DNA of 64,000 nt from a virus (IMGVR_UViG_3300038379_000484:471-64470), one strand, 5' to 3'. Shown: positions 41,838 through 63,389, numbered from the stretch's first letter. Notes: generated by a model not told the origin, from the letters alone. Numbers and translations: made by a program.

Positions 41838-42101
41838 ATGCTTGACGGTTTCGTGGTCGACATCGGCAACAACCTCTACGACATCTTGCTCGGGCAGATG
41901 GGTCAGGTGACTGTCGTCAGCCAGACGTCGATTACGGTCGACTTCGGCGGTAACCGTGTCCTCACCTATGTCGGCAACGGCCAGTTCGCCGGGCGCCGGC
42001 GCCTGTACTGGCGTGATCCGGTGCTCACGCTTCCGCAGAAGAACGACCCGCAGTGGCAGTTGCTGCAGGCCGTGGTCAACACCATCCGCGCCAACGCTTA
42101 G
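41838..42101 (+). CDS. small SH3-like hypothetical protein, 87 aa
   Basis: SD AGGAG. Confidence 0.6.
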   Translation: MLDGFVVDIGNNLYDILLGQMGQVTVVSQTSITVDFGGNRVLTYVGNGQFAGRRRLYWRDPVLTLPQKNDPQWQLLQAVVNTIRANA

Positions 42102-42110
42102 GAGGAAGTC

Positions 42111-42488
42111 ATGCAAGGCTACGTTCAAGAGTGCGGTGTCAGAATCCCGGGCAAGCCGTGGGTGCCGACCCCGCCCGGTCCTCAGTTCTGTGGGCAGGCG
42201 CTTCGTGGCGGGGTCACGCACGAGCGCTCGAATGCGCCCGTGACCGACGTCTGCGGACGCCCGCTTGCGTGCGAGCGCACGCCGACGGTGGTGTTGCAGC
42301 CCACCTGCTACTCGCTCCCGACATGGCCCGAGGGCTGCTCGCAGCCGGCGTATGTGCGCATCACCGTCAACGATGACTGCAGCGCCGTCCGCGGTCCCGT
42401 GGTGGACGCGACGAACACGCCCATCGTGAGCGCGACCGAGGTGGTGTGCAGCATCCGTTCCGGGCTCCCCGTGATCCCGGCGGCGTAA
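42111..42488 (+). CDS. Cys-rich putative virion protein, 125 aa
   Basis: SD AGGAGG; 8 Cys. Confidence 0.65.
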   Translation: MQGYVQECGVRIPGKPWVPTPPGPQFCGQALRGGVTHERSNAPVTDVCGRPLACERTPTVVLQPTCYSLPTWPEGCSQPAYVRITVNDDCSAVRGPVVDATNTPIVSATEVVCSIRSGLPVIPAA

Positions 42489-42501
42489 GCGGGAGACGAT
42501 C

Positions 42502-44439
42502 ATGGCCAACCCACTGGATTGCAACGGCAAGCCGTTGCCGTGGTCGACGGAGCGCTGCGGCCCCGGGCCTGTGATCGTCGACGTCTGCTACACCGTGCCG
42601 CCATCGCTGGTCGTGCTGGAGGGCACGAAGGCGATGACGCTGAACCCGGATTGCACGGTTGCTTCCACCGTCATCCGCGACTCCAACGACGTCCCCGTTC
42701 CTGGTGCTGTCGAGGTGACGTGCCCGTCGGCTGAGGGCTGCTGCGATCCCGGCAGTTTGTGCTCGATCCTGCAGGCGTTGCCCACACAGGTTCCAGGCGT
42801 CGGCGACACCGCTGTCTTCGTCACCCCTGCCGGCTGCTTCCTCGGCGTGCCCGGTGGTGGTGGTGGCGGCTTCCCCGGCTATGGCGCGCCGGTTGCGACC
42901 GCCTGTGCGAATGCGCCCGGCGTGTCCGCGCTCGCCGCGCGCGCCGACCACGTTCACCGCAGCGAGATTCCGGTCGCCGAGGACGGCGCCGCCGTCGGCA
43001 GCCGCTGTACGCTGAACTTCACGGGGACCGGCGTCTCGGTCGCCGACAACGCCGGCCTCGATCGGGTCGACGTGACGATCGACGCCTTCAACGGCGGCAC
43101 CATCACCAACCCGATCCTCGCCGCCAGCGGCTCCTGTGCCGCGCCCGCCTACAGCTTCACCGCCAGTCCCGACTCGGGGATGTTCTACACGGGCACGGCG
43201 GTTCGCGTCAGCGATGACAACTGCGACGACTACATCGAAGTCGGCGCCAGCATCAACATCGTCAGCACGTCGGGGACCGTTACCACCAGCGCCGGCACCA
43301 GCATCCTGAACATCACACCGGGATCGTTCCTTGCCATCGCCGGCACGACCGCCGGGCTGAGCGGCTCCGGCACGGTCACAGTCGTCTCCGGCGCAGCCAA
43401 CATCGACATCGACGCCGCGACCAACGTCGAAATTGGCACCGCCGGCCTCTCGCGTCTGCTCGTGCATTCGACGGGCGCGTGGGGCGTCAGCGCCGGCGGC
43501 TTCGGTCTGGCAGGACAGGTCATCACCAGCTTTGGCCCGGGCGTGCCCGTGGCGTGGGCGACGATCACGCCCGCCGGCATCGGCGCGAACCCGACGCTAG
43601 ACGTGCGCGACGCCGGCGTATCCGAGGTCGTCGGCCCGACGGTGCTCGACTTCGACGATGGCTTCGTCGTCACGCCTGCTGGCACGACGGCAACTATCGA
43701 CCTCGACTACGGCACGCCCGTCGCGACGGGGACGGCCAACGCAGCCGGCGCGTCCACGCAGACCGTGCGCGCCGATCACGTCCACCGCACGCTCGTCGGC
43801 GTTGAGGATGGCGGCGTCGCCATCGGCAGCCGGCCCACGATCAACTTCATCGAGGGCGCGAACGTCACCATCACCGTCGTCGACAACGGCGGCAGCGACC
43901 GCGTTGACGTGACCATCTCCGCCACCAGCAGCGGGCCGTCGTTCATCCAGCGCTTCACCTTCCAGGCCGACCAGTTCGATTCGCCGGTCAACGCCAACTG
44001 GGCGGTGAACGCGCTCGCTCCGGCTGCGGCCGACACGGTGAACGCGGCGATCGTCGTGCGCCGGTTCGACGACACCACGGAGGAGGGCGTCGGCGGCCTG
44101 CTCACGGTGCCGCCGGGCGCGGTCAACGCCACCTTCTACTTCAAGTGGCGGGCGCAGACCGCCCCGGGCGCCGCCGCCGGCGTGGTGCTGACCTACTACA
44201 CGCGGTCGATTCCCGACAACGCCGCCGTCGGCGCGTGGTCGGCAGCCGTCAACTTCACCACGCTCTCGGTGCCGACGAACACCAACTTCCAGTACGACAG
44301 CCAGACGATCTCGCTGGCGACGCTGGGATGGACGGCGGGCACGCTGCGCCAGTTCGAGATCACCCGACGCGGGGCGCAGGCCGGAGACACCCTCACCGGC
44401 GACTTCTGCCTCGCCGAGATGATCGTGGAGTTCACCTGA
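42502..44439 (+). CDS. fibre-like virion protein, 645 aa
   Basis: Cys-rich N-terminus, two RADHVH motifs, GSCAAPAYSF module, beta-sandwich-like C-terminus. Confidence 0.7.
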   Translation: MANPLDCNGKPLPWSTERCGPGPVIVDVCYTVPPSLVVLEGTKAMTLNPDCTVASTVIRDSNDVPVPGAVEVTCPSAEGCCDPGSLCSILQALPTQVPGVGDTAVFVTPAGCFLGVPGGGGGGFPGYGAPVATACANAPGVSALAARADHVHRSEIPVAEDGAAVGSRCTLNFTGTGVSVADNAGLDRVDVTIDAFNGGTITNPILAASGSCAAPAYSFTASPDSGMFYTGTAVRVSDDNCDDYIEVGASINIVSTSGTVTTSAGTSILNITPGSFLAIAGTTAGLSGSGTVTVVSGAANIDIDAATNVEIGTAGLSRLLVHSTGAWGVSAGGFGLAGQVITSFGPGVPVAWATITPAGIGANPTLDVRDAGVSEVVGPTVLDFDDGFVVTPAGTTATIDLDYGTPVATGTANAAGASTQTVRADHVHRTLVGVEDGGVAIGSRPTINFIEGANVTITVVDNGGSDRVDVTISATSSGPSFIQRFTFQADQFDSPVNANWAVNALAPAAADTVNAAIVVRRFDDTTEEGVGGLLTVPPGAVNATFYFKWRAQTAPGAAAGVVLTYYTRSIPDNAAVGAWSAAVNFTTLSVPTNTNFQYDSQTISLATLGWTAGTLRQFEITRRGAQAGDTLTGDFCLAEMIVEFT

Positions 44440-45173
44440 TGTCGCTGCTCTTTGACGGTGTGAACGACTGGGTGGACTGCCGCGCCGGCGGCGCTGTGGT
44501 CAACTGGGTCAACTCCGCTACCGTCGCCTTCATGCAGGCGTGGGCTGTCCCCACCGCAGCAGGGGCCATCGGCCACATGATCGGCTGCTCGATCAACAAC
44601 GGCGGCGTTGCCACGCCTGATTCACGGATGAGCCTGGAGCGCTCGGCAACCGGCGCCATCGAGTCCTATAGCAGAGCCGGAGACGGTGGCGCGTTCCAGA
44701 TCGTGAACGATAACGGCAGTGGCTCTCTGCCAGCGGCGGCGGAGACGCTGTGCTCGGTCAGGTGCAACGTCGCCGGCGACTCGGTACAGATTCAGCGCAA
44801 TGGCGCGCAGACCGTCACCGCAGGCGTCGCCTACGCTGGTGGCGCGTTCACCGGGACGGGAAGCGCGTCGGCATCGCTGGGCTCGGACGAGGACGGATCG
44901 GCCACGTTCTTCGGCGGGCGCATCGAGGACGCGCGCGCCTACAACCGCAACGTGAGCGACGCCGAAATTCAGACCATTCATGCCTGTCGTGGGCACGACG
45001 GCATTTGGAGCGGCATCACCGCGCGCTACCGCTGCAACGAGGGCGCCCCTGGTGTCGCGGCCGCTGGCGCTGGCGCGATCAAGGACGTGACCAACAACCA
45101 GCGCCACGGCACGCCAACGAACGGCCCGACGTGGCAGGAGAGCAGGCTCTCCCTCAGACGGAGATTCCCATGA
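44439..45173 (+). CDS. LamG/concanavalin A-like domain protein, 244 aa
   Basis: LLFDGVNDWV, FFGGRIEDARAYNRNVSDAEI motifs; TGATG coupling. Confidence 0.8.
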   Translation: MSLLFDGVNDWVDCRAGGAVVNWVNSATVAFMQAWAVPTAAGAIGHMIGCSINNGGVATPDSRMSLERSATGAIESYSRAGDGGAFQIVNDNGSGSLPAAAETLCSVRCNVAGDSVQIQRNGAQTVTAGVAYAGGAFTGTGSASASLGSDEDGSATFFGGRIEDARAYNRNVSDAEIQTIHACRGHDGIWSGITARYRCNEGAPGVAAAGAGAIKDVTNNQRHGTPTNGPTWQESRLSLRRRFP

Positions 45174-45616
45174 GCAGCGCTTTCAACCCGGTCACGATCG
45201 AATACTACTCGTCGATCCACTCGCCAGACTTCGGCCCGCCGTGGGTGCTCGATCAGCCTGAGGCGGACGCGCTCTACAAGGCGGGCGTGCCAATCTGGTA
45301 CTGGAAGGTGGTGGGCGGCGTCGCTACGGAGATGACGCAGGCGGAGAAGGATGCGGTGAACGCTGCCAACCTCAACGCCAACCGCGACGCGAACGCCGCG
45401 ATCCTCGACAACATCGAGAACATCCTGCGCGCGGTCTGCCTCGTCGTTCTCGATCAGGTGAACGGCGACCGCAGCACGATCAACGCCATTCTCACCGCCG
45501 TCGATCAAGCGACGACGCTTGCCGACCTCAAGACGAGGATTGGTCTGATCGCCGATCTCCCCACTGGCAACGGCGCCGCATTCAAGACGGCGGTGCGTAA
45601 CAAACTCGGGACGTGA
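45170..45616 (+). CDS. putative fibre assembly/accessory protein, 148 aa
   Basis: YWKV..G...EMTQAEKDAV motif; coiled C-terminus; ATGA coupling. Confidence 0.55.
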   Translation: MSSAFNPVTIEYYSSIHSPDFGPPWVLDQPEADALYKAGVPIWYWKVVGGVATEMTQAEKDAVNAANLNANRDANAAILDNIENILRAVCLVVLDQVNGDRSTINAILTAVDQATTLADLKTRIGLIADLPTGNGAAFKTAVRNKLGT

Positions 45617-47931
45617 CCGACATGACCACCTGCCAGCCTCCCAACTGCCCGTGCTTCTGCCCGGCCGCTGATCTGCCCGTCGCGCCGATTCAGGTCGCGC
45701 AAGGCGGCCCCGGCGCGGTCGTCGACATCCCGATCTACGGCACGCAGTCCTTCAGTGTCTCGATCGTCACCAATCCGCTGTTCCCGATCGCGCAGACGCC
45801 GCTCATCGCCTCGGTGGCGATGCACTCCGGGAACATCGTTCGCGTCACGACGAACGCGCCCGCGCTTGCCGAGGCACAGCAGAACTACGCCGCGCTCATC
45901 CGCGTCTGCAACGCCTGCGGTACGCTCGACATTCCCATCACCATCGAGGTCGTCGCCGACATCACGCCGATCGTCAGCGACTGTGATCTCGCCCAGCAAC
46001 TGTGGGCGCCGGGCGGTCCCGCGCTGCCCGGCGACCTGCTGCTCGCGTTCCGCGCCGGCACCTGCCTCGCCGTAGACCTGCCCAACCTCGACGTGTGCGC
46101 GGCGATTCAGGCGTTTGCGCCGGTGTTGCCGACGCCGGCCACGCAACTCGCCACCGCCGACTGCGGGCTGGCGACCGTCGCCGACGTGCTCGCGCTATAC
46201 GACCCGTGTGCCGCCATCCAGGCGTTTCCGGCGGCGGGGCCGCTGCAGGCCGCCGATCAGATCGTCGCCGTCCAGGGCGGCGTCTGCGCGCTTGCGACGG
46301 TGCAGGACGTGGCGGCGGCGGCGGCGGCCGCGTTCGATCTCTGCACATCCTTCCAGAACCTGCCCAACGCCATCGTGCAGCCGACGGCGGTGTTCATGGG
46401 CGAGCAGAACGGCGGCTGTTTCCAGTTCGCCGTGTCCGATCTCCTCGCGCTCGCCGTGCCAGCGTGCCCCTATCTCGCCCCGTGCGACGGCTCGTGTGCG
46501 GCCCCCGCCTACTCGTTCGCCAACGCGCCGACAACGGGGATGTGGCTCAACGGCGCCATCCTCACGCTGAGCGCGAACAACTGCGCCGACATCATTGAGA
46601 TCGGCGCCAGCATCAACCTGACCGGCGCGGCAGGCGCGCCCGGCTCTAGCATCACCATGACCGGCGGCGCCGGCACCGGCGGCGGCGCTTCGGCGGTCTT
46701 TACCGTCGTCGGCGCGGCCTCCCAAGGCGGCGACATTATCGGCGCGGGCGGCGTGTCCTCGTTCGGCGCGACCGGCGGCAGCCTGTGGGTGCAGGGCGGC
46801 ATCGGCACCGGCGGCGGCGTCGTGCAGATGATTGCCGGCGACGGTCAGGTTGCCGGCGCGGGGTTCGGCGGCAACGCGATCATGCGTGCCGGCAAGAGCT
46901 ACGGCGGCACCAGCGGGCCAACCGCGTCGCTGAAAGGCGGCGAGGCCGTCAACGGCACCGGCGGAGCAGCGCTGATAGACGGCGGAGCGTCGGACACCGG
47001 CACCGGCGGCGCGGTGTTCATAACTGGCGGGTTATCCAACACCGGGAACGGTGGGCAGGCCCAGCTATTAGGTGGGACGGCGAGTAACGGAGGGAATGCA
47101 GGCCACGCCATCGTCATCGGCGGACAAGCTGTTGGCGGTGGCAGCGCTGGCAACGTGAGGCTGCTCGGCGGCACCGGGTTCGGCGGTTCGTCGCACGGTC
47201 AGGTAATCGTGCTGACCAGCAGCCCGCCAACCGAGCGCATCAGGTGGACGGCAACAGGTGAGTGGGCGATCGGCGGGAACGTCGGCATAGCCGGTCAGGT
47301 CATCACGAGCAACGGCGCCGGCCTGCCGCCGACGTGGCAATCACCTCCGGGTCCATCAGAACCGGCGAACCAGATTGTTTTCGGCACAGGCGCCGGAGTG
47401 GACAGCGACCCAGACCTCACCTACGTCGCGTCGACAGGTCGCTTCTGGGTCAACACGACTGACGGCGTAACCCCCAGCGTAAGCGTCGCCGGAATCCCGC
47501 CCGACTGCACGATCGCTGGCGTCAGCGCGTCTACGCCTGGCACTTCTGGTGGCGCGCTGAGACTGCAGGGGGGGCGTGGCAACACGACGGGACTCGGCGG
47601 CAACGTCATCGTCAGCGCCGGGAACGGCGGCGTGAACGGGCGTGGCGGCGACCTGATCCTGCGTGGCGGCGCGACCGGCGCGGATGGTGACGGCGGCGAT
47701 ATTCTCATCGGCACATATCAGGGCTTCGGGACGAACAGGAACGGCGGCAACATCCGCGTCGATCTCGGCGCCCCGACCGGGACTGGGACCGGAGGCTACT
47801 TTAGTCTCACCGCGAACGTCGAAAGATTCCGCATCGCCTACAACGGCGAGTGGCAGCTCGCTCTGAATCCTGGATTGCCGGGTCAGAAACTTACATCGCA
47901 GGGGCCAGGGCTTCCGCCGATCTGGGTGTGA
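45613..47931 (+). CDS. Gly-rich fibre/adhesin-like protein, 772 aa
   Basis: Repeated D.C..(I/F)Q modules, GSCAAPAYSF module, long GG.x.x.GG repeats. Confidence 0.7.
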   Translation: MTDMTTCQPPNCPCFCPAADLPVAPIQVAQGGPGAVVDIPIYGTQSFSVSIVTNPLFPIAQTPLIASVAMHSGNIVRVTTNAPALAEAQQNYAALIRVCNACGTLDIPITIEVVADITPIVSDCDLAQQLWAPGGPALPGDLLLAFRAGTCLAVDLPNLDVCAAIQAFAPVLPTPATQLATADCGLATVADVLALYDPCAAIQAFPAAGPLQAADQIVAVQGGVCALATVQDVAAAAAAAFDLCTSFQNLPNAIVQPTAVFMGEQNGGCFQFAVSDLLALAVPACPYLAPCDGSCAAPAYSFANAPTTGMWLNGAILTLSANNCADIIEIGASINLTGAAGAPGSSITMTGGAGTGGGASAVFTVVGAASQGGDIIGAGGVSSFGATGGSLWVQGGIGTGGGVVQMIAGDGQVAGAGFGGNAIMRAGKSYGGTSGPTASLKGGEAVNGTGGAALIDGGASDTGTGGAVFITGGLSNTGNGGQAQLLGGTASNGGNAGHAIVIGGQAVGGGSAGNVRLLGGTGFGGSSHGQVIVLTSSPPTERIRWTATGEWAIGGNVGIAGQVITSNGAGLPPTWQSPPGPSEPANQIVFGTGAGVDSDPDLTYVASTGRFWVNTTDGVTPSVSVAGIPPDCTIAGVSASTPGTSGGALRLQGGRGNTTGLGGNVIVSAGNGGVNGRGGDLILRGGATGADGDGGDILIGTYQGFGTNRNGGNIRVDLGAPTGTGTGGYFSLTANVERFRIAYNGEWQLALNPGLPGQKLTSQGPGLPPIWV

Positions 47932-47933
47932 CA

Positions 47934-48209
47934 ATGGATTACGAAAAGCTCAACCCCTGCCAATACGAGCGCGCGGTGCGCCTGCTCGACTGGGCGGAGA
48001 CTGGCTGCTGGTGCTGCACGGCGATCCGCGCCCTGCTGGTCGGCCTATGGATCGGCCTGACCATCGGCGCGCTCGCATGGGGCGGGGCGATGCCGGGCGC
48101 GATCGTCTGGGTCGTGGGCGCCGCGATCGTCGGGCCAGCGCTTTTCATCGCGCGGCGAATCTGGAAGGACTCCTATTCTGCGGAGGGTGAAGATGAACGG
48201 CAACCGTAG
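47934..48209 (+). CDS. small membrane protein with CWCC motif, 91 aa
   Basis: Two hydrophobic helices preceded by GCWCC. Confidence 0.55.
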   Translation: MDYEKLNPCQYERAVRLLDWAETGCWCCTAIRALLVGLWIGLTIGALAWGGAMPGAIVWVVGAAIVGPALFIARRIWKDSYSAEGEDERQP

Positions 48210-52197: not shown

Positions 52198-52668
52198 GTG
52201 GGCTGCGAGATCCAGACCGGCGTCTACGTCGATGAACTGCCGGCGGTCAACGACTGCGGACTGAAGGAGAGACCTGTGGATCCCAGCATCCTGTTCAACG
52301 CGCAGTCGACGTCTGAGTTCTCGCCCACCTTCAACGTCGCCGAAGGCGAGTGCGCGCTGCTCAGCGCGTACTCGACCTGCGGCGGCACGATCCAGATCGA
52401 GAAGCTGTTGTTCTCGAAGCCTGAGCTACCGTTCATCGGAGCGGGTAGCTGCGCCTGCGATTTCCCCATTCCAACGCCCGAGCAGATCGCGGGCATGGAC
52501 GTGTGCGGATGGACGATGAGCGACTGCGCGCAGATCCGCAACATCTGCACGCCCGGCACCTACCGCCTGCACGCTCCCGCAAATCTCCTCGGCTGCCTGA
52601 TGGTGACGATGGAGAGGGTGCGGCAGCGGGCGACGCCGATCCCGCAGGGGCTGGTGCTTGGCGCGTAG
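52198..52668 (+). CDS. Cys-rich putative virion protein, 156 aa
   Basis: 10 Cys; resembles the N-terminal domain of the 1199-aa protein (FS.TF.V..G.C...). Confidence 0.6.
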   Translation: MGCEIQTGVYVDELPAVNDCGLKERPVDPSILFNAQSTSEFSPTFNVAEGECALLSAYSTCGGTIQIEKLLFSKPELPFIGAGSCACDFPIPTPEQIAGMDVCGWTMSDCAQIRNICTPGTYRLHAPANLLGCLMVTMERVRQRATPIPQGLVLGA

Positions 52669-52928: not shown

Positions 52929-53096
52929 ATGCGTAAGCCGACGACGAAGGCGGGCAAGCAGGACAAGATGGGGCAGTGCATGCGCGAATACAAGGAAGGC
53001 ACGCTTCACAGCGGTCGCGGCGGGCCAGTCGTGACCTCGCGCAAGCAGGCTCAGGCGATCTGCCTGAACGTGAGCGGGCAGAGCAGGAAGCGCTAG
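52929..53096 (+). CDS. DUF6496-like small basic protein, 55 aa
   Basis: MREYKEGTLHSG.GGPVVTSRKQA.AI motif; SD GAGG. Confidence 0.7.
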   Translation: MRKPTTKAGKQDKMGQCMREYKEGTLHSGRGGPVVTSRKQAQAICLNVSGQSRKR

Positions 53097-53105: not shown

Positions 53106-54572
53106 ATGGGATGCTCGACCTGCGGTTGCAGCCCCTGCCAGTGCGTGCAGTGCCCGCCATCGGTGCTGAACCAGCCGCGGATCTTCAACCCGACGGTCAG
53201 CGGCGGCCTCTTTACGAACGGCGTCTGGCAGTCGGCGACGCTGAACGCGCCCAACATCAACGGCGGCCAGATCACCGGCGCCACGATCGACTGCACCACG
53301 CAGGCGTGCACGCAGGCGCCCGGGACGTGCGATGGCACGATCGCCACGACCGGCTACGTCTGCCAAGCCGTCAACGACGCCATCAGTGGCGCCAATCCGA
53401 ACTTCTGCGCCGCTGTCGACGTCTGCCTCGCCGGTGGGCCTAGCACGTGCACGCTCGTCATCAACTGCATCAACACCAATATCGGCTCGATCTTCAATCC
53501 GGCGGCGTTCGATCCGTCTGTGTACGCTGACACCGTTCAGTACGGTGTCACGCGCTACGCCACGATCGCGGAGGTGCAGGGCGCCTCTGCGCTGCTCGCG
53601 ATCGACCCGGCTACGCTCGGCGCGTTCTGGAGCGCTGGTGGCCCCAATGCGCTGTGGACGGCGTTCGAGGCCGGCGTATGCGCGGCCGGAGCGTCGTGCT
53701 TCGCGCCGATCACGAGCCCGGTGTTCCTCGGCGACCCGCAGGCGCCGACTCCGCTTCCTGGAGACAACGACACCTCGATCGCGACCACGGCTTTCGTTCA
53801 GGCTGCGATCACCGCCGGTGGATTCGCTCCGATCAACAATCCCGTCTTCACCGGCGACCCGCAGGCCCCGACGCCTCTGGCCGGCGATAACGACACCAGC
53901 ATCGCCACGACCGCTTACGTCCAGAACGAGATCAACCTGCTGCTGGCGCCGACGCCGGCGTTCTGCGCGGCCGTCGGTCTCTGCGGCTACGCGCTGCTCG
54001 CCAGCCCGACTTTCACCGGCGACCCGCAATCTACTACCCCAGCGCCCGGGGACAACGATAACTCGATCGCGACCACCGCATTCGTTCAGGGCGAGATCGC
54101 GACGGCGATGGCGACGATCACGGGCGGCCCGATCTCGTTCTCCTCGACGCCGGTGGGCAATGCGGCCGCGACCGAGACCGACGCCTTCCTGCACAACCTC
54201 ACCGCCGGCTTGCTCGCGGCGAACGGCGACGCGTGGGAGTTCGAGGCCGCCGGCACATTCGCGGCGACGGTCAGCGTCGACAAGCGCATCCGCGTCTACT
54301 TCGGCGCGACGATCGTGTTCGACTCCGGCAACCTCGCCATCACGAGCGCGGAGACGTGGCGCCTCACCGGAACCGTGGTGAGGACCGCTGCTGCGGCGGA
54401 GAAAGTCGCCATCAGCCTCATCACGAGCGACGGCACGATTCAGGCGATCGGCGCCTACAGCACGGCGGCGGAGAACACGGCCGTCGCGCAGCCGGTCAAG
54501 CTCACTATCAACGGTACGAACGCGAACGACGTGATCGCGGAGTTCTTCCGCGACAGGTACGTTCCCGCATAG
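53106..54572 (+). CDS. Cys-rich fibre-like protein, 488 aa
   Basis: MGCSTCGCSPCQCVQC N-terminus; three P.P.PGDND.SIATTA repeats; 18 Cys. Confidence 0.72.
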   Translation: MGCSTCGCSPCQCVQCPPSVLNQPRIFNPTVSGGLFTNGVWQSATLNAPNINGGQITGATIDCTTQACTQAPGTCDGTIATTGYVCQAVNDAISGANPNFCAAVDVCLAGGPSTCTLVINCINTNIGSIFNPAAFDPSVYADTVQYGVTRYATIAEVQGASALLAIDPATLGAFWSAGGPNALWTAFEAGVCAAGASCFAPITSPVFLGDPQAPTPLPGDNDTSIATTAFVQAAITAGGFAPINNPVFTGDPQAPTPLAGDNDTSIATTAYVQNEINLLLAPTPAFCAAVGLCGYALLASPTFTGDPQSTTPAPGDNDNSIATTAFVQGEIATAMATITGGPISFSSTPVGNAAATETDAFLHNLTAGLLAANGDAWEFEAAGTFAATVSVDKRIRVYFGATIVFDSGNLAITSAETWRLTGTVVRTAAAAEKVAISLITSDGTIQAIGAYSTAAENTAVAQPVKLTINGTNANDVIAEFFRDRYVPA

Positions 54573-54578
54573 GAGTAA

Positions 54579-55766
54579 GTGATGGGCACCTGCACAAACT
54601 GCGGCTGCAACCCCTGCTCCTGCCAGCCGTCAGTCCTGAATCGGCCGCAGATCATCGGCGGCGTGTTCGATGGCCCAACGATCAACGGGCCAACGATCAA
54701 TGGCGGCCAAGCCAACAACCTGAACTTAGTCGGCGCGCAGGTCGATTGCACGAGCAGGGGGTGCACGGCAGGAGTGGGTGTGTGCGATGCCGGCATCGCC
54801 ACCAACGCGCAGGTCTGTGCTTCGATCGCGGCCGCCATCTCCTCTGGGAATGCGGCTTTCTGCGCCGCGGTCGAGAACTGCCTTTCCGGTGATCCGGCAG
54901 CGCTGTGTCCGGCTGTGGCCACGTGCATTGCCACCACACCGGGGATCATCAACTCGACCTCAGTGTTCGGTCTCAACGCCAGAGCTACAACCGCTCTCTA
55001 CGGTGTGGTGCGCTACGCCACGATCGGCGAGTTCAACAACGGCAACTGCCTCGTCGCCGTCGATCCGTGCACGCTCATCTCCGCGCTGCAGACGCCGAGC
55101 CTCGCCTCTCCGTTCTGGCTCGCGTTCACTGGCGCGGTTTGCAGTGCCGGGTCTGGATGCTTCGCCCCGCTGAACAGTCCCGCATTCACTGGCGACCCGA
55201 CCGCTCCTACGCCACCGAGCGGCGACAACGACACCAGCATTGCTACGACCGCGTTCGTTACGACGGCGATCAACAACGCCATCAGCAGCACAAACACAGC
55301 GTTCTGCGCTGCGGTGAACGCCTGCGTGAGTATTAGCCCGCCGTCGTGTGCGAGCATCACCGCGCTGTTCCCAGCCGCAGGTGGGGCACCGCCGAATACA
55401 ACCCGCTTCCTCGGCACTGACTGTCTGTCATATACGGCCGCGCAGATCGCCGCCGCTGGAGGCGGTGGTGGTGGCGGGTCGTCTGGTGGTGGATGCACGA
55501 TGGGCCTCACGACGTTCACGGGGCCGCACAGGAACGGATCGCCCGTCGACAACACCGGGCTGTGGATCGGCCCTGACGACTCAGCGGGGGCTGGGGCGGC
55601 GCAATGTTTTGCCGTTCTCCCCGCAATTTGCAGCAGCACCGGCTTCCAAACGGTCGGTGGACTGTGGATCGTGATTACCAACGCGCAGGCGCAGACGGCC
55701 AGAGCCGGCGGCTGCCCGAACATCACGTTCCAGAGCATTTGCGGTGAAAGTGGAGTTCAGAGCTAG
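54579..55766 (+). CDS. Cys-rich fibre-like protein, paralog of previous, 395 aa
   Basis: MGTCTNCGCNPCSC N-terminus; shared LN.P.I..G, GVVRYATI and GDNDTSIATT motifs; 26 Cys. Confidence 0.72.
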   Translation: MMGTCTNCGCNPCSCQPSVLNRPQIIGGVFDGPTINGPTINGGQANNLNLVGAQVDCTSRGCTAGVGVCDAGIATNAQVCASIAAAISSGNAAFCAAVENCLSGDPAALCPAVATCIATTPGIINSTSVFGLNARATTALYGVVRYATIGEFNNGNCLVAVDPCTLISALQTPSLASPFWLAFTGAVCSAGSGCFAPLNSPAFTGDPTAPTPPSGDNDTSIATTAFVTTAINNAISSTNTAFCAAVNACVSISPPSCASITALFPAAGGAPPNTTRFLGTDCLSYTAAQIAAAGGGGGGGSSGGGCTMGLTTFTGPHRNGSPVDNTGLWIGPDDSAGAGAAQCFAVLPAICSSTGFQTVGGLWIVITNAQAQTARAGGCPNITFQSICGESGVQS

Positions 55767-56458: not shown

Positions 56459-57430
56459 ATGGACGTGAAGAACCCAAGGCCGCATCACCCACTGGCTGCT
56501 GCTGCTGCTGCCGAAGACGACGAGATCCAACGGATGATTTCCGCTCCCCTGGCCGTGCCCAGTGCACCGCCGGAACCGGTCAAACCGGTCGTGACCCCGG
56601 AGCCGAAACCACCCGAGCCGGCGCGTCCCGCTGTCGATCCCGCCGTGGAGAAGTTGCAGCACAACTTCGAGACCATGCTTGGTCGCGTCGAGACACTGAA
56701 CGCGGAGAACAAGCGTCTCGCTGAGGAAGCTGCTGCGAAGGAGGCGAACCGTGTCTTCCTCGAACAGCGACTGAACGAGCGCAACGCCGAGGTGGAGAAG
56801 GCGCTGGCAAGGCTTCGTGAACTCGAAGGTGCGCTGGAGGTGAACGAGGCGTCCAAGGGATTTACGTCCGAACTCGTGGATCAGGCACATTTTGCCGAGA
56901 TCTTCCGCGGCATCACACCGCACCTTCGCAAGCGCGACGAGATGATCGAGCGCGTGCTGGCGCGGAACGACGCCCTGGAGAAGAAGCTCGACGAGGTGCT
57001 GAACTCCACGAGGCAGGAGGTGGCGAAGCTCGACCAGAAATGGCTCGATCGTTCGGTGCTGAGAACAACGCCTGAGATCACGCAGATGCTCAAGTCTGCA
57101 GAAGGTCAGGAGTTCCTTGCCCAGCGCGTCCCGGGAACACGACGCACTCGGCTTCAGGAGCTTCAAGACGCGTACCGTGATGGAGACGACACCTTCATCT
57201 CGGAACTCGTCGCCGACTGGAAGCGGCTGGGCAAGCCTCAGGAGGTTCCGACGCCAGACCCTGCGCGCACGATAGTTACCGAGACGCCTCGCGCTCCGCA
57301 GCCGGAAAGGCCCGTGTCGGAGGACGACGTTCAGTCGGCCTTCCAGCAGGTGCTCGACGGCAGGATGACGCGCGAGGATTTCCGCAAGATCAAGGCCACG
57401 TTCGAGAAGCAACTCGTCGCGGGCCGATAA
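56459..57430 (+). CDS. capsid scaffolding protein, 323 aa
   Basis: Coiled-coil, acidic, Cys-free; immediately upstream of the capsid gene. Confidence 0.75.
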   Translation: MDVKNPRPHHPLAAAAAAEDDEIQRMISAPLAVPSAPPEPVKPVVTPEPKPPEPARPAVDPAVEKLQHNFETMLGRVETLNAENKRLAEEAAAKEANRVFLEQRLNERNAEVEKALARLRELEGALEVNEASKGFTSELVDQAHFAEIFRGITPHLRKRDEMIERVLARNDALEKKLDEVLNSTRQEVAKLDQKWLDRSVLRTTPEITQMLKSAEGQEFLAQRVPGTRRTRLQELQDAYRDGDDTFISELVADWKRLGKPQEVPTPDPARTIVTETPRAPQPERPVSEDDVQSAFQQVLDGRMTREDFRKIKATFEKQLVAGR

Positions 57431-57445
57431 CCGGAGGTCACGACA

Positions 57446-58396
57446 ATGACTGTGAGAGCCGCATCGGGCTGGAACTCTCTGGAGGACAGCCCCCTCGGAC
57501 GTCGCAAGTACGCGCGCACGATCGCGTACAGCTACCACTGCGACGGGATCTTCTCGTTGTTCGCCAACAGCGAATACAACAAGGAGATCGACTACTGCAA
57601 CCAGGAGATCCAATTCGTTCGCAACTTCGAGTTGGAGTTCCTGCCCTACGAGAAGAACGAGGTCGGCGTGCCGCAAACCGCCACCCCGGACGCCTTCTGC
57701 TTCCGCATCTGCGACGCCGCCTACATTCGCGTCAAGGTCGACGAACTCGACGAGCGCTTCCTCTGCGAGCGCTGGGCGATGTGGAAGGAGATGTTCGATG
57801 TTGCCGTCACTCGCGCGTGGGACAGGCTCCTGTCCAACGACGTGATGAAGCGGCTTCCGTTCTACGCCTCCGCCTTCAACAAGGGCGCGACGGCGGGGGC
57901 GAAGTCCGGCAACGTCAACCTCGGCGCGCCGGGCGCACCGGTTCTCGTCGACAGCAACAACATCGTCAGTGAGATCGCGAAGCTCAATCAGGTGCTGACG
58001 GAAGCCTGCGCGTGGCAGAAGGGTCGCATGATCCTGCTGATGCCGCCGGCGATCCTCCCCATCCTGATGGACTCGAAGCTCGCCAACGCCCTGCAGATGG
58101 GGCGCTGCGTGGACTGCTCGCCGCTGATGAGCGGGGAGTGGTATCGCAACATGATGGGCTGGGATTTCGTCATCACCAACTACGCCTGCCAGGGCTTCGA
58201 CGCCACGGCGAACCGGTCGGTGATGTACGTGATCGCGATGAACAGGGATGCCCTGCTGTTCGGGCAGAACCTCATCATCACCCGCACCCGTCAGGGCGAT
58301 GGCTTCTACAAGCTGCTCGAAGTGCTGGGCGTGTGGGGCCACAAGCCCGTGCACCCCGATGGCTTCGCCGTCGGCTACTGGAGCGTGGGCGCCTAA
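57446..58396 (+). CDS. major capsid protein (HK97 fold), 316 aa
   Basis: Position after scaffold; SD GGAGG; size; GWDFVITN...G.K.V.P.G C-terminal pattern; strong codon bias. Confidence 0.8.
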   Translation: MTVRAASGWNSLEDSPLGRRKYARTIAYSYHCDGIFSLFANSEYNKEIDYCNQEIQFVRNFELEFLPYEKNEVGVPQTATPDAFCFRICDAAYIRVKVDELDERFLCERWAMWKEMFDVAVTRAWDRLLSNDVMKRLPFYASAFNKGATAGAKSGNVNLGAPGAPVLVDSNNIVSEIAKLNQVLTEACAWQKGRMILLMPPAILPILMDSKLANALQMGRCVDCSPLMSGEWYRNMMGWDFVITNYACQGFDATANRSVMYVIAMNRDALLFGQNLIITRTRQGDGFYKLLEVLGVWGHKPVHPDGFAVGYWSVGA

Positions 58397-58470
58397 GCGC
58401 CAGACGCGGCGCGGCGCGTTCAATCTCCCGGTCGGCCCGCGTAACCGGCTGATGATGATGGAGGCAACAA

Positions 58471-59085
58471 ATGGCTGATGTACAACTGTGGGAAGGCGGG
58501 AGCGCTCTCGTCGTCGGTGTCGACTGCGGTGGTTGCAAGGAGAACAACTATCCGGGCCCGCACCGGATGGCTGCTCACCGGCGCCGCGCACCCTACCTGC
58601 TGGGTGGGGCGATCGACCCGGTCTGCGATCTGCGCAACCGCGACTGCTTCTGCCAAATCGTGGCCGACGACATCGTCTGGCTCGCCCTGATCCCGGAGGA
58701 CTCGTACTTCGAGGCGCTTCGCGTGAAAGTGGTCGAGCCCGACGCTGGCGGCGTCACCTTCAACGTGGTGGCGGAGCAGATCAACCTCGACACCGGCGCC
58801 GTCATCGGCCCGGTGGCGCTTCCCGCTGGCTTCGCCGGCGTGGCGACGGCCGCTCAGGTGGCGGTGTTCGGTGAACCGACGGGTGCGCCCGTCTACACCG
58901 ACCCCTACGCTGGCGGCGTGCGCAACGGCATCCGTGTGGGCGTGCAGATCGCGACGCTGCCGCAGTCTGGCAACTTCTGCGATTACCGCGGCCGCATCGA
59001 ACTCTCGGTCGCCGCGCGCGATCTGGAGACGGTGCAGATCGCGGACTGCCGCCTCAACGGTAGCTGCGTCATCAACAACCCGTAA
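58471..59085 (+). CDS. putative capsid decoration/cement protein, 204 aa
   Basis: Directly after the capsid gene; SD GGAGG; 8 Cys. Confidence 0.6.
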   Translation: MADVQLWEGGSALVVGVDCGGCKENNYPGPHRMAAHRRRAPYLLGGAIDPVCDLRNRDCFCQIVADDIVWLALIPEDSYFEALRVKVVEPDAGGVTFNVVAEQINLDTGAVIGPVALPAGFAGVATAAQVAVFGEPTGAPVYTDPYAGGVRNGIRVGVQIATLPQSGNFCDYRGRIELSVAARDLETVQIADCRLNGSCVINNP

Positions 59086-59152
59086 GGCCGGAGCACTGGC
59101 CAGTGCGTAGTACCCCGGGGGCCTCGGTCCCCGGGGCTGACAGGAGAAGACG

Positions 59153-59503
59153 ATGAGCGACATGCCCAAGATCCAGATGGTGGGCTCGGGTCCGCCGCGG
59201 CTGAACGACGGCGACCTGCCCGGCTACAAGGCGAAGCCCGCGCTGTTTCCTCCGGGGACGCCGAAGTCGCCCTACGTGAAGGACAGGCAGGGCATGGTCT
59301 ACTTCTACGAGCCGTGGATGGACGACATGGGCGACGTCCTCCAGCCGTGCTGGGAGGCCCCGCCGAAGCCGGCGCCGCGCGTCGTGCTGTCGCCGATGGA
59401 CATCGAGCACTACGGCAAGCAGGCGCCGCAACCGACGGAGCAGCCGCCCCAGACGAAGGCGCAGACGCCGTCGTTCGCGTCGGTGGAGACGCAGAACCTG
59501 TGA
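59153..59503 (+). CDS. Pro-rich hypothetical virion protein, 116 aa
   Basis: SD AGGAG. Confidence 0.6.
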   Translation: MSDMPKIQMVGSGPPRLNDGDLPGYKAKPALFPPGTPKSPYVKDRQGMVYFYEPWMDDMGDVLQPCWEAPPKPAPRVVLSPMDIEHYGKQAPQPTEQPPQTKAQTPSFASVETQNL

Positions 59504-59510
59504 GGTCGGC

Positions 59511-60191
59511 GTGGACACGCTGGGCAAGATCCTCGGCGACATCGCCGAGCAACTGAAGGACACCGCTCCGGGCGCAAGTTTCATCGCCTACCCAGAGTCG
59601 CTGCTTCTTCAGTGGTTCAACGACGGGCTGTGCCTGCTCGCGCGCTGGCGGCCGGATCTTTTCTCGCGACCGGCTGTGGTCACGCTCAAGCCTGGATCTC
59701 GTCAGGAGATCGACGGCTGCAGCGTTTTCGGGTCGGTCGTCTCCACGGTTCTTGCTGACGGCCGCGAGGTGCCGGTCAGGCGCACGAGCTACAACGCCTC
59801 GCAGGTCTGGACGAAGCCGTCCTGCCTGAAGTCTGCGAACGGCTTCACCATCGACAGCTACAGCTTCGACACCGCGCAGAAGACGACCTTCTACGTGCAT
59901 CCTCCGATCCCGCCGGGCAAGCCCGTGCTGGCGAGAGTGGTGTGCGCGACAACTCCGCCGGCGTTCACGCTCGCTGATCTCGATGCAGACGTGGATGCCG
60001 ATTGCTATCAGGTGGCGATGGTGAAGCAGTACGTGCTCGCGCAAGCCTATTCGCAGGACACCGACCAGACCAACGTAGCGCTCGCGCAGTTCCACCTCGG
60101 CATCTGGAACAGCTTCCTTCCAGCGGGAGCGCGCGCCGACGCTGCATTCGCCGGCGGTGTTCAATCCACTCAGCAGGTGCAGACCAAATGA
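59511..60191 (+). CDS. head-tail adaptor-like protein (DUF6682-like), 226 aa
   Basis: W.NDG...L...RPDLF, L.PG..Q, FYV.PP, YVLA.AY.QD motifs. Confidence 0.65.
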   Translation: MDTLGKILGDIAEQLKDTAPGASFIAYPESLLLQWFNDGLCLLARWRPDLFSRPAVVTLKPGSRQEIDGCSVFGSVVSTVLADGREVPVRRTSYNASQVWTKPSCLKSANGFTIDSYSFDTAQKTTFYVHPPIPPGKPVLARVVCATTPPAFTLADLDADVDADCYQVAMVKQYVLAQAYSQDTDQTNVALAQFHLGIWNSFLPAGARADAAFAGGVQSTQQVQTK

Positions 60192-60871
60192 GGCTCGCCG
60201 AACAGGTGAAGATGGTTGGGCTGGACAGGTTCCTGCCCGAGCTTCTGCTGACGGCCCCGGCGCTGCCGTCGGACATCGCCGCCTCCTACATTCGTCAGGC
60301 CGCGATCGACTTCTGCGAGCAGTCGAACGCGCTCCGCCGCAAGATCATCCTCGAATCTCAGGCTGGTGTCGGCGACTACTTGCTGGAGCCTCCAGACTGC
60401 ACGCGCACGAACAAGATCGTCCGGGTCTGCGATCACCTTGGCCAGCCCTACCTGAGTGACATCAGCGGCCGCTGCGAGTCACGATGCAACATCTCCTGTG
60501 TCGACGCCTGCGGCCCCGGGGAGTGGTTCCCCATGCAGCGGCTGCGGGTGTGGTTCGAGCAGCCCAACGTCTTCAACGTCAGGCCGATCCCGCGTTTCGA
60601 TCTCGATCTCGGATTCGTTGTTGAGATCTCTGTCGTGCCAGATCGAGACGCGTGCGAGGTCGACGAACTCCTCTATCAGCGGTATGCGCCGACGATCGTT
60701 GCCGGAGCGCTTTCCTACCTACAGCTTCAGCAGGGGCAGCCGTGGTCGAATCCTGGGCTGGCGCAAGCGAACAAGAGGCAGTTCAACGTGGGTGCCGCAC
60801 GCGCCCTCGGTGATGTGCTTGTCGGCACCGCCGGTGGTAATCACAGGCTGACCGCTCGGAGAATCGTATGA
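60188..60871 (+). CDS. tail adaptor/tubular-A-like protein, 227 aa
   Basis: IRQAAIDFCE.S..LR, I.AGAL..L......W.NP..A motifs. Confidence 0.65.
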   Translation: MRLAEQVKMVGLDRFLPELLLTAPALPSDIAASYIRQAAIDFCEQSNALRRKIILESQAGVGDYLLEPPDCTRTNKIVRVCDHLGQPYLSDISGRCESRCNISCVDACGPGEWFPMQRLRVWFEQPNVFNVRPIPRFDLDLGFVVEISVVPDRDACEVDELLYQRYAPTIVAGALSYLQLQQGQPWSNPGLAQANKRQFNVGAARALGDVLVGTAGGNHRLTARRIV

Positions 60872-61725
60872 CCGATTGCTGCAGCACTCCGACGACCCCG
60901 CCGGCGAGGATCCCGCCGGTGGAGTTCTGCGTCGGCAACTACACCATGGTCTATCAGGATGGGCGCATGGTGAAGGTGCCGCGCCAGCCGAAGATCGCGG
61001 ACGGAGTCTACGTCAACCCCACCATCACGATGGTCGACGGTTGTGTCGTCGCCATCGAGGCCGGGACTGCCGTTCTCTATTCCGAGTGCGATCCCTGCGC
61101 AACACCGGCGCCGACGCCACCTCCGGCTACGATCGCCATCGACGGCAGCGGCTGCAATCTCGTCTCCAATGGCCCGAGCGGCCTCATCGCCGCGTTGGTG
61201 ACGACGCCGTCGTCGTGCATCTCGTTCTCCGGGTGTGGCACCGCCGGCGCGCCGCTGCAGGCTGCGCCGATCATCTCGCCCGATGCTGGCAACGCGCTGG
61301 AGTGCAGGCCGAACGGTCTGTATTCGGCGTCGGCTGCGCCGCCATCGGGCGTCAACTTCGTCGGGTGCGGAATCACCGTCACCAACGGGCTCATCACAGC
61401 GCTGCCGTTGCCGTTCCAGCCCGTTTTGGAAATCGTCGCTGATCCGAATGGTTCGGTGACGGTGACGCGAGACGCCACCAACCCATGCCGCGTCACTATC
61501 GGCGGTGGCGCCTTCAGTGGCGGCGACATCCCCGGATTCGTGCTGACCAAGGGCATCAAGCTGTTCGCCGCGTCCACTGATCTTCCCGCTGACCCGAGCG
61601 TGGACGGCTTCTATTGGGGCGCCGTCGGCGCCGCCAACCCGCGTCAACTCTGGGGATTCGTCGACGGCAGCGGCTGGCGCCAGATCTTCGACAGCACCTC
61701 ATCCTCGCTGCAGATCGTGATCTGA
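60868..61725 (+). CDS. Cys-rich tail-associated protein, 285 aa
   Basis: 12 Cys; ATGA coupling. Confidence 0.6.
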   Translation: MTDCCSTPTTPPARIPPVEFCVGNYTMVYQDGRMVKVPRQPKIADGVYVNPTITMVDGCVVAIEAGTAVLYSECDPCATPAPTPPPATIAIDGSGCNLVSNGPSGLIAALVTTPSSCISFSGCGTAGAPLQAAPIISPDAGNALECRPNGLYSASAAPPSGVNFVGCGITVTNGLITALPLPFQPVLEIVADPNGSVTVTRDATNPCRVTIGGGAFSGGDIPGFVLTKGIKLFAASTDLPADPSVDGFYWGAVGAANPRQLWGFVDGSGWRQIFDSTSSSLQIVI

Positions 61726-63389
61726 TGCCCGGGCTCAAGTTCAATCAGTTCGCTGGGATGGCGCCGAGGGTAAACGATCGTGCGCGCTCCGCGCAGATCG
61801 CCGACCTCGCGCTCGACGTGAATCTTGACGAGGGCACGCTTCGTCCGTGGCGTCAGCCTCTGGAGGTGCACGAATCCGGCTTCGACAAGGTGCTGGCCAT
61901 GATCCTCGTCGACTGCTGCTGGCTCACCACGGACAAGTGCGTGAGCTTCTGCGTACCTTGGCCATCCTGCCCATTCGTTGTGAAGGCTGGAGACGGTGTG
62001 CCGGTTTATGCGACCTTCGCGGACGCCTGCATCGGAGACTGGTGTCCGCTGACGTGGCCGTGCCCTGACGTCGCGCCAACGCCTTCGCCAACGCGATCCG
62101 CGCCGTCGGTCGAGGAGCGCGGCTACGAGACGCGAGCCTATCGCTATGCGTGGGTGAACAGGTACGGCCACGAGACCGGTGGTTCTCCGCCGTCATTCCC
62201 GATCAACGCGAACGATGGCGATGCCATTGTCGTTCAGATCCCGCCAGCGCCTGACGGCTACTGCATCGAAGGCGTTCGGCTCTATCGCACCGGCACGCCT
62301 TTCGAGACCGGCGCGGAGAAGTCGAATCCGATGAACACGGAATGGTTCCTTGTCGGAGAGTTCGATGCCGGGATCGGTGTCGTCACCGACAACATCCCCA
62401 GCCGTGACCTCTCCGCCGGGCAGAGCGCGCCCGCCACGTTCCTCGGCGATGAGCGCTTGCCCGCTCCCGACGATCTCATCGAGGTGGTCACGCTGGAGAA
62501 CGGCCAGATGGCGGGGATCTCGCCGTCGCTCAGGATGGTGGTGATGAGCGAGCCATTCCTGCCCACGTCATGGCCCGTGCGCTATCGCAAGATGCTCTGG
62601 GACGACGAGTACCCGATCGCGCTCGCCTCGATCGGTTCTGTGCTCTATGTCGGCACCAACGGTCGGCCCTACACGATCAACGCCGTGCAGCAGGAGAGCA
62701 ACGCCGATGGCAGGCACGGTGTCTTCCGCTTCCGCGAGCCCAGCCCGTGTCTGAGCCCGCGCAGCATGTGTGCAGGGGCTGGCGCTGTCTACTTCGCCAG
62801 CCTTGACGGACTGGTTGCGCTCTCCGGCACACAGCAGCGCGTGATCTCGGAGGAGTTGTGGTCGAAGGATCAGTGGCGTTCGCTTCATCCGAGCCGGATG
62901 ATTGGCGCCGTGCACGACGGCCACTACCTCGGCTTCAGCGACAACGCCGGCTTTAGGCTGCGCACCGCCGAGCAAGAACACACCGATCAGCGCACGGCGA
63001 TGCTCACCTACCTTTCGGACAGGCCAGATGCGATCTGGCTCTCCGACCACGGCAGCCTCTACATGGCCAAGGCCAACATCGTCAGCCAGTGGAACGCCGG
63101 CAACGTGCTGAGACCGTATAGGTGGCGATGCACGGAGTTCCAGTGGGCGAGGCGCACATCGCTCACCGCCTACTACGCGCAGTTCGAGAACCTTGGTCCG
63201 GTCGACGTTACCGTCTCCACGGAGAAGGGTGCGTTCACGCACTCTCCGCTGAACAGCGACATCAACCGGCTCCCGAACTGGATGAGCGTGACCGAAACCC
63301 AGATCACGCTCGCCGGGACGGGAGAAGTATCCGAGTTCGCGATCGGCACCTCGATCAAGGAGACGTTCAGGGCCGGGGCTCAGGTATGA
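61725..63389 (+). CDS. tail nozzle / stabilisation protein (P22 gp10/T7 gp12-like), 554 aa
   Basis: F.GMAPR...L..G.LRP N-terminus; Y.Y.WVN..G.E..S; SEPFLP..WP..Y; beta-propeller-like repeats. Confidence 0.72.
   Translation: MPGLKFNQFAGMAPRVNDRARSAQIADLALDVNLDEGTLRPWRQPLEVHESGFDKVLAMILVDCCWLTTDKCVSFCVPWPSCPFVVKAGDGVPVYATFADACIGDWCPLTWPCPDVAPTPSPTRSAPSVEERGYETRAYRYAWVNRYGHETGGSPPSFPINANDGDAIVVQIPPAPDGYCIEGVRLYRTGTPFETGAEKSNPMNTEWFLVGEFDAGIGVVTDNIPSRDLSAGQSAPATFLGDERLPAPDDLIEVVTLENGQMAGISPSLRMVVMSEPFLPTSWPVRYRKMLWDDEYPIALASIGSVLYVGTNGRPYTINAVQQESNADGRHGVFRFREPSPCLSPRSMCAGAGAVYFASLDGLVALSGTQQRVISEELWSKDQWRSLHPSRMIGAVHDGHYLGFSDNAGFRLRTAEQEHTDQRTAMLTYLSDRPDAIWLSDHGSLYMAKANIVSQWNAGNVLRPYRWRCTEFQWARRTSLTAYYAQFENLGPVDVTVSTEKGAFTHSPLNSDINRLPNWMSVTETQITLAGTGEVSEFAIGTSIKETFRAGAQV

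Follow-up and report, generated by a model that had tools for sequence, protein, structure and literature searches.

Probable disulfide pairing in the cysteine-rich outer proteins of an environmental podovirus with nearly cysteine-free candidate ejected proteins

Disulfide bonds that hold virions together have been described for several tailed phages. In the Agrobacterium myophage Milano, cysteine accounts for 1.4% of all residues and 2.1% of those in structural proteins, compared to 0.9% in T4 and 0.7% in A511 (PMC10811340). The conserved cysteines form intra- and inter-chain disulfides in sheath, baseplate and fibres, as observed by cryo-electron microscopy and tested with dithiothreitol (DTT), and the short fibres are bonded to the baseplate via N-terminal cysteines (PMC10811340). 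Milano is related to 7-7-1 and OLIVR4 (PMC10811340; PMC10491603). The trimeric fibres of the freshwater cyanomyophage Pam3 are anchored via N-proximal cysteines to cysteine-rich tail regions, and DTT detaches them (PMC9942802). In Jabs, a siphophage of Mycobacterium abscessus, approximately 1,700 disulfides link capsid, connector and tail (PMC13419713), while among siphovirus tail tubes one branch, about 14% of the family members, carries disulfides (PMC13576161). The opposite trait is known from ejected proteins. Homologues of gp71 from phage DEV contain 0.00075% cysteine vs 0.865% in the proteomes, and this suppression, noted for DEV gp71, gp72 and gp73 and for N4 gp50, extends across the ejection operons of the Schitoviridae (PMC11445570). 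The published explanation is that cysteine is selected against when proteins cross the periplasm, where enzymes form disulfides (PMC11445570). Both traits have thus been described in other phages; here they occur in a very cysteine-dense podovirus of the GP4/Bcep22 type, represented by the virus sequence IMGVR_UViG_3300038379_000484:471-64470. This stretch of 64,000 nucleotides, referred to as the window, covers bases 471-64470 of a 65,392-bp record that CheckV rates as complete.

The window has a guanine-cytosine (GC) content of about 65% and is nearly the whole 65.4-kb genome of a podovirus with a Ralstonia-GP4/Bcep22-type tail, as shown by matches of the nozzle, ring and adaptor proteins (E values in the list below) and by tblastn matches of the nozzle to Bcep22, Ralstonia and Stx phages. 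Genes were called with a codon-usage model trained on the long open reading frames of the window. The late region contains, in this order, the small and large terminase (37.4-39.8 kb), the portal (39754-41829), the large tail proteins, two fibres, scaffold, capsid, cement protein, adaptor, tail rings and nozzle (ending at 63389). It then wraps round the record and continues with the 447-amino-acid protein, the SLT transglycosylase and the 2502-amino-acid LPD38 protein, followed by two small cysteine-rich proteins and the lysis genes (594-12816 in total). The features assigned to the outer virion, or candidates for it, are as follows; pLDDT stands for the predicted local distance difference test.

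10273..10725, + strand: 150-amino-acid cysteine-rich candidate virion protein, its first 4 nt overlapping the giant gene; 12 cysteines
10735..11352, + strand: 205-amino-acid protein, last gene of the structural operon; 8 cysteines in the window and in L014 and L015
42111..42488, + strand: 125-amino-acid cysteine-rich protein, after the portal gene; 8 cysteines
42502..44439, + strand: 645-amino-acid tail protein; 14 cysteines, 12 in the first third; 13-14 in relatives
45613..47931, + strand: 772-amino-acid tail protein; 19 cysteines, 13 in the first third, with an N-terminal cluster C7, C12, C14, C16
48193..51786, + strand: 1197-amino-acid tail protein; 31 cysteines, 21 in the first third, 0 in CxxC
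52198..52668, + strand: 156-amino-acid cysteine-rich protein upstream of the fibres; 10 cysteines, 8-10 in orthologues
53106..54572, + strand: tail fibre 1, 488 amino acids; PHROG tail-fibre families to E = 1e-26; 18 cysteines, N-terminal CxxCxCxxCxCxxC cluster, fibre repeats
54582..55766, + strand: tail fibre 2, paralogue of fibre 1 with PHROG tail-fibre matches; 26 cysteines
57446..58396, + strand: major capsid protein, HK97 fold, 316 amino acids; AlphaFold2 pLDDT 81, Foldseek matches to phage capsids at E = 3e-14; 9 cysteines
58471..59085, + strand: cement (decoration) protein, 204 amino acids, jelly-roll core, structural match to cement proteins; 8 cysteines
59511..60191, + strand: head-to-tail adaptor, Pfam SU10_adaptor E = 2e-14; 5 cysteines, 84% conserved
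60206..60871, + strand: tail ring protein like GP4 gp81, 221 amino acids; PHROG 437 E = 2e-33, PDB 8jov_G E = 4e-6 (12 chains); 8 cysteines
60868..61725, + strand: 285-amino-acid cysteine-rich tail protein starting with MTDCC; 12 cysteines, 96% conserved vs 47% for other residues
61725..63389, + strand: tail nozzle protein, PDB 8jov_A (Ralstonia phage GP4 tail, 6 chains) E = 6e-26, PHROG 511 E = 4e-80; 12 cysteines

Four proteins, the scaffold and three candidates for ejection, form the internal set:

56459..57430, + strand: scaffold candidate, 323 amino acids, directly upstream of the capsid gene; 0 cysteines
594..1937, + strand: 447-amino-acid candidate ejection protein in the periplasmic-tunnel position, its gene immediately preceding those of the SLT and giant proteins; 0 cysteines
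1944..2768, + strand: 274-amino-acid lytic transglycosylase, candidate ejected cell-wall enzyme, Pfam SLT E = 8e-25; 0 cysteines
2768..10276, + strand: giant LPD38 protein of 2502 amino acids (2493 from the second ATG), candidate ejected polyvalent protein, Pfam LPD38 at residues 2169-2352; 3 cysteines

The phage norm for cysteine lies around 0.7-0.9%. In the window, the whole proteome contains 393 cysteines in 20,175 residues (1.95%), and the 18 outer shell and tail proteins reach 195 in 6146 (3.17%), where 119.7 would be expected (binomial P = 1e-10). The internal set holds only 3 in 3537 (0.08%) instead of the 68.9 expected (binomial P = 4e-26), and the two sets differ with a Fisher P of 9e-35. 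Among the 20 residues, cysteine is the most over-dispersed in the proteome (chi2/df 4.19; chi2 P = 2e-39). Ala, Gln and Glu abound in the internal proteins. Relative to the remaining proteome, residue frequency in this set is 0.04 for cysteine, a 25-fold depletion, and 0.45-1.6 for all other residues, so that the depletion is specific to cysteine. An even number of cysteines is found in 15 of 20 outer proteins (P = 0.02).

The contrast between the two sets had been proposed by a sequence-only reading, and the per-protein counts given there, from the capsid, the cement protein and the 42111 and 52198 proteins through fibre 1 and the 60868 and 10273 proteins to the four internal ones, were all reproduced from independent gene calls. 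Fibre 2 likewise has 26 cysteines, in 394 residues from 54582 or in 395 when a GTG start at 54579 is used. The proposed comparison with structural proteins of other phages bears out the enrichment as well, as the capsids of T7, P22, HMO-2011 and Bcep22 contain 0.2-0.6% cysteine. The 10273 and 10735 proteins are candidate virion proteins, placed there by position, as their genes close the structural operon in a conserved way. Homologues of the 10273 protein carry 12 (L014) and 10 (L015) cysteines at mostly the same positions. No family match was found for this protein, and in a protein atlas both it and the fibre N-terminus match only unnamed viral clusters, below 0.9. A function of its CRTC motif as a catalytic CxxC was considered and rejected, the first of these cysteines being absent in L015.

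In relatives collected from viral and metagenomic contigs (such as L006 and L015; P0034, on a 1.2-kb contig, gave no gene context), which stem from freshwater metagenomes, the cysteines of the capsid, cement protein, adaptor, fibre 1 and the 42111 and 60868 proteins are 83-96% conserved vs 44-62% for the other residues. A lack of conservation, which the sequence-only reading had named as grounds for abandoning its proposal, is thus not what the relatives display. Cysteine numbers are maintained at 40-70% protein identity. The 42111 protein has 8 cysteines at identical positions in L004 and 7 in L006, nine orthologues of the 60868 protein have 11-14 (12 in six of them), and the L006 homologue of the 1197-amino-acid tail protein has 20 in 914 residues. 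Two late proteins served as internal controls:

38291..41829, + strand: large terminase and portal, internal controls for cysteine conservation

Their cysteines are 44-47% conserved vs 51-52% for the other residues, which argues that there is no special constraint on them. The cysteine enrichment of the outer proteins is thus under selection. The data also bear on the idea that the cysteines have no structural role, the richness being a compositional habit of lineage or host and the cysteine-free proteins being merely helical and of low complexity. The cysteine content of the non-structural proteins, the poorly conserved cysteine positions of the terminase and the residue bias of the internal proteins would all fit such a habit. 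However, the outer cysteines are the best-conserved residues and change in pairs (see below), and cysteine alone falls below 0.45-fold in the internal set. Moreover, the trait spans relatives from 40% to 66% GC, those at 40-44% GC retaining cysteine-rich capsids, while Bcep22, at 66% GC, lacks it (capsid 1/364, fibres 0.2-0.7%); GC content was therefore rejected as its cause. The conservation and coupling data largely refute the habit explanation, which we regard as very improbable.

The pattern of change in the capsid indicates how the outer cysteines may be arranged. The protein, modelled as a monomer, was compared in 129 sequences, i.e., the capsid of the window and 128 full-length representatives of its family obtained by an exhaustive HMMER search. 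Cysteine numbers range from 0 to 17 in the representatives; members of the close clade have 9 or 11. Of the 129 capsids, 36 contain both C51 and C107, 3 only one of them and 90 neither; for C32 and C188 the corresponding numbers are 25, 3 and 101. On a tree built without the tested cysteine columns, each of the four sites changes 17-18 times. On independent supported branches the partner changes in the same direction in about 6/8 and 5/6 cases, respectively, and never in the opposite one. Cross-pairs, e.g., C51-C221 or C32-C221, are only weakly coupled. Cysteines have also been gained by twos (C148+C161, C167+C315). In the cement protein, all 10 distinct orthologues have 8 cysteines in three different position sets, with C61+C170 swapped for C27+C109. 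The core of its model resembles the cement proteins of GP4 (8h89_J), Pam1 and KHP40. The mean pLDDT is just 63, and the model is poor at both cysteine-bearing termini (pLDDT below 50 at residues 1-40 and 187-204).

The two fibres align over their N-terminal cysteine-rich domain, and both open with a CxxCxCxxCxC cluster that is near-invariant among those homologues whose N-terminus is retained (34 of 38). Beyond this cluster there are C-x4/5/6/10-C pairs and repeated FCAAVxxC motifs preceding each fibre repeat. Among the 38 distinct sequences of the fibre family, C75 and C86 are always lost together, in 6 sequences, as are C162 and C169 in 4 (fibre 1 of the window included) and C63 and C68 in 1. 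Lone changes are limited to C198 (one sequence) and C8 of the cluster (three sequences). The public gene call for fibre 1 (P0001, 469 amino acids) starts 19 codons downstream of the ATG at 53106 (53106-53165) and thereby cuts off the conserved cluster. Since homologues keep the cluster and a ribosome-binding site precedes the upstream ATG, 53106 is likely the true start. Just upstream of the fibres, at 52929-53096, lies a gene for a 55-amino-acid DUF6496 protein (E = 5e-9), found in the same place in L003 and L006 and perhaps serving as a factor for fibre assembly.

A different reading of the same residues, also raised by the sequence-only reading, is armour by bound metal, in which Zn, Fe, Cu or Fe-S clusters bound by the cysteines would keep the virion proteins together. 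The fibre cluster has a spacing like that of metallothionein and other metal-thiolate peptides, and the capsid (C221-x2-C224) and the cement protein (C19-x2-C22) carry one CxxC each. Across the outer proteins, however, just 20 of 195 cysteines (10%) are in CxxC and His amounts to 0.78%, vs 27% and 2.4% in the non-structural proteins, and the clear zinc-ribbon-like proteins of this genome are small non-structural ones. Furthermore, the cysteines change by twos, not by the threes or fours expected of tetrahedral sites. Pairwise gain and loss, the small CxxC share and the scarcity of His together fit disulfides better than metal sites. As a general explanation, metal is improbable, and this part of the earlier proposal fits at most the fibre clusters, whose near-invariance and varying cysteine number suit it.

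Disulfides are therefore the preferred reading: the cysteines of the outer proteins probably pair into disulfides in the particle, with the injected proteins kept cysteine-free. The capsid, cement protein, adaptor, tail rings, nozzle, two fibres and three large tail proteins would form intra- and inter-chain bonds that staple the shell and fasten the tail appendages. The particle would assemble in the reducing cytoplasm and, as no oxidase is recognisable in the phage genome, become oxidised after its release into oxic water. Indeed, six-frame translations of the complete genome gave no match to Erv/ALR, thioredoxin, glutaredoxin or DsbA at E <= 1, nor were these families found among about 80 proteins scanned against Pfam, so that a phage-encoded oxidase was rejected and oxidation after lysis in oxic water would be the simplest route. 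The absence of an oxidase match, together with conservation and pairwise change, favours the earlier suggestion of a virion locked by disulfides after lysis. The cysteines are crowded in the N-terminal parts of the tail proteins; the N-terminal thirds of the large tail proteins are taken, by analogy with fibres and spikes of other phages, to be their virion-proximal ends. Export of the fibres by Sec was considered and rejected by eye, as the N-termini of the cysteine-rich tail proteins lack a hydrophobic segment like that of a signal peptide. The sequences themselves show the counts, their conservation, the coupling in pairs, the general nature of the depletion and the absence of an oxidase gene; from these we infer the bonds, their timing, the identity of the ejected proteins and the reason for the cysteine-free scaffold.

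A three-copy model of fibre 1 residues 1-200 scored 0.77 vs 0.02 for the best control, with a partner pLDDT of 90 and agreement in 96% of contacts between runs. The mark used was reached by 20 of 30 proteins solved as one-chain pairs and by 1 of 23 solved as single chains, a calibration that is only rough for the fibre in view of the three copies and the custom alignment. The model supports a trimeric N-terminal domain, with an intertwined interface predicted from about residue 16 onwards that includes Cys 101, 107, 115 and 121. With residues 1-15 outside the confident interface, the cluster would be free to meet another protein or a metal. A more specific role can be proposed for the N-terminal clusters, i.e., CxxCxCxxCxC in both fibres, CxxxxCxCxC in the 772-amino-acid protein and CC in the 285-amino-acid protein. 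They might act as a covalent rivet module that docks to cysteine-rich sites of the tail hub by disulfide exchange or a shared metal-thiolate, making attachment and perhaps ejection release redox-gated; we put this forward tentatively and consider it rather doubtful.

The disulfides could also be locks instead of staples, being reduced at the host surface before the tail opens or the fibres rearrange, as proposed for Milano and Pam3. In these phages reduction is needed for contraction or frees the fibres (PMC10811340; PMC9942802). The concentration of cysteines in the tail hub (adaptor, gp81-like ring, 60868 protein and nozzle) and in the N-terminal thirds of the tail proteins agrees with such a latch. 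Nevertheless, podoviruses lack a sheath that would need restraining, cysteine is just as abundant in the capsid and cement protein, which points to general stabilisation, and the sequence offers nothing to tell a lock from a staple. A latch is therefore considered unlikely.

Several observations weigh against disulfide pairing in the outer proteins as set out above. The cysteine number is odd in the capsid, the adaptor and the 772- and 1197-amino-acid proteins (9, 5, 19 and 31), which implies that some cysteines are unpaired or paired between molecules. The non-structural proteome is also cysteine-rich (1.95%), the terminase has 1.8-2.4% in all relatives, and the baseline of the lineage outside the virion shell is raised to about 1.4-2%, which explains part of the outer enrichment. 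Conservation is just 58-74% for the cysteines of the nozzle, the gp81-like ring and fibre 2. The fibre cluster varies between 5 and 7 cysteines and lies outside the modelled trimer interface. Two further proteins that could be internal, of 281 and 269 amino acids, hold 3 and 5 cysteines, respectively. Finally, disulfides would not form if the phage lived in an anoxic niche.

The 281- and 269-amino-acid proteins are paralogues encoded between the nozzle and the cysteine-free genes (63865-63999, running past the window end, and 3-590), with hydrophobic Gly/Ala-rich N-termini and a common ELQTxVARELHxHWK motif.

In the candidate ejected proteins, the lack of cysteine extends to relatives. It is complete in the positional orthologues of the 447-amino-acid protein (L002, L014, L015) and in SLT orthologues from L002, L003, L014 and L015, the distant L008 having 2; 23 homologues of the giant protein contain 4 cysteines in 59,384 residues. 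The 447-amino-acid protein has no match in Pfam, PHROG or PDB, and its role is deduced from synteny with T7, N4 and Bcep22. The giant protein has no usable PDB match and a weak PHROG match (E = 1e-4) to the N-terminal, non-polymerase part of N4-type virion RNA polymerases; its relatives carry varied additional polyvalent-protein domains. From SLT, LPD38, the match to virion RNA polymerases and synteny with Bcep22 gp74/gp75, we infer that the three proteins are head-packaged and ejected. They would be threaded unfolded through portal, tail channel and host periplasm, and the absence of cysteine would keep them from being trapped by wrong disulfides.

Similar figures are found in well-known phages: gp15 and gp16 of T7 have 0 cysteines in 2065 residues and gp14 has 1, gp7, gp20 and gp16 of P22 have 0 in 1309, and in Bcep22 gp75 (0/4602) and gp74 (0/532) are cysteine-free. 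Cysteine depletion in ejected proteins is thus a general rule, already published for the Schitoviridae, and no peculiarity of this phage. The claim that proteins threaded through the portal avoid cysteine stands as far as the avoidance goes, but it describes this rule and does not extend to the scaffold. Because the scaffold is not threaded through the portal, a separate reason is needed for its being cysteine-free. Aligned orthologues in L001, L002, L003, L006 and L010 have no cysteine in 5 of 5 cases, nor has the gene in scaffold position of L008, and the scaffolds of the four phages checked are all cysteine-free (this phage, T7 gp9 0/307, P22 gp8 0/303 and Bcep22 gp52 0/322, the last being a scaffold by position). 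Our guess is that the scaffold is kept cysteine-free so as to exit the shell cleanly, without mixed disulfides.

Compared to the described systems, this phage shares raised cysteine with Milano, at still higher values, but is short-tailed instead of contractile-tailed, uncultured and known only from metagenomic sequence. Pam3 has one cysteine per fibre chain, while here a cluster of 5-7 is followed by 5-10 further pairs per chain. As in the tail-tube branch, the trait is partially spread in its family (C51-C107 in the capsids). Jabs and the tail tubes represent another morphotype and other protein families, with experimentally verified bonds. The giant protein resembles those of N4 and DEV in being near cysteine-free, yet it belongs to the LPD38 polyvalent proteins of the Bcep22 gp75 type, and no RNA polymerase domain was detected in it; the contrast within the virion is far stronger here since the outer proteins are cysteine-rich. 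Tail core, cement fold and a gene order ending with the giant and lysis genes are as in GP4 and Bcep22 (PDB 8jov, 8h89; NC_005262). Bcep22 also has cysteine-free internal proteins, but its outer proteins are cysteine-poor at the same 66% GC (capsid 0.27%, fibres 0.2-0.7%, nozzle 0.69%).

Particular to this phage are the 3.17% density in a GP4/Bcep22-type podovirus, the reach from 40 to 66% GC and the multi-cysteine clusters at the fibre N-termini. One particle would be subject to two opposite selections on cysteine, which is kept and paired outside in water and purged where proteins are threaded into the host. The signature of paired cysteines can be read from metagenomic sequence, so that candidate disulfide-stapled virions can be found and bond maps predicted without culture. 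The presence of C51-C107 in more than a quarter of the capsids (36/129) suggests that such particles are common among environmental phages. In addition, near-zero cysteine offers a cheap marker of ejected proteins in unannotated podovirus genomes, and disulfide-stapled HK97 capsids and fibres may be of practical use as robust protein assemblies.

No close cultured phage was found. A DNA search of a phage collection with the 20 kb structural module and a tblastn search of it with the capsid gave no match, and scans of viral contigs with the fibre and the 10273 protein gave no relatives. Likewise, a scan of prokaryote genomes with the capsid-clade alignment yielded no prophage and hence no pointer to the host. 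Neither Pfam nor PHROGs gave a match for the 645-, 772- and 1197-amino-acid tail proteins or the 42111, 52198, 60868 and 447-amino-acid proteins, and the portal is only 24% identical to portals of HMO-2011-type phages. The syntenic relative L006 lies on a contig of 133,850 bases, about twice the genome of this phage, of which 21 kb were examined; it may represent a concatemer assembly, a relative of larger size or host DNA with a prophage.

Some further genes of the window deserve mention. In the early region, a lone 68-amino-acid protein (15491-15697) has 8 cysteines and a DnaJ CXXCXGXG zinc-finger match (E = 4.5e-6). In the tail module, a 244-amino-acid protein (44439-45173) with a Laminin_G_3 (concanavalin-like lectin) domain (E = 3e-7) may serve as a receptor protein that binds sugars. 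Between two large cysteine-rich tail genes, at 47934-48209, a 91-amino-acid protein without family match is predicted to span the membrane twice, with a CWCC motif at the edge of the membrane, the same four cysteines being present in its L006 homologue; that it takes part in assembly or thiol chemistry would be purely speculative. The nozzle gene is followed by that of a 159-amino-acid protein (63386-63865), which has a weak GNAT acetyltransferase match (E = 8.5e-4) and occupies the same position as gp69 of Bcep22, an acyl-CoA N-acyltransferase.

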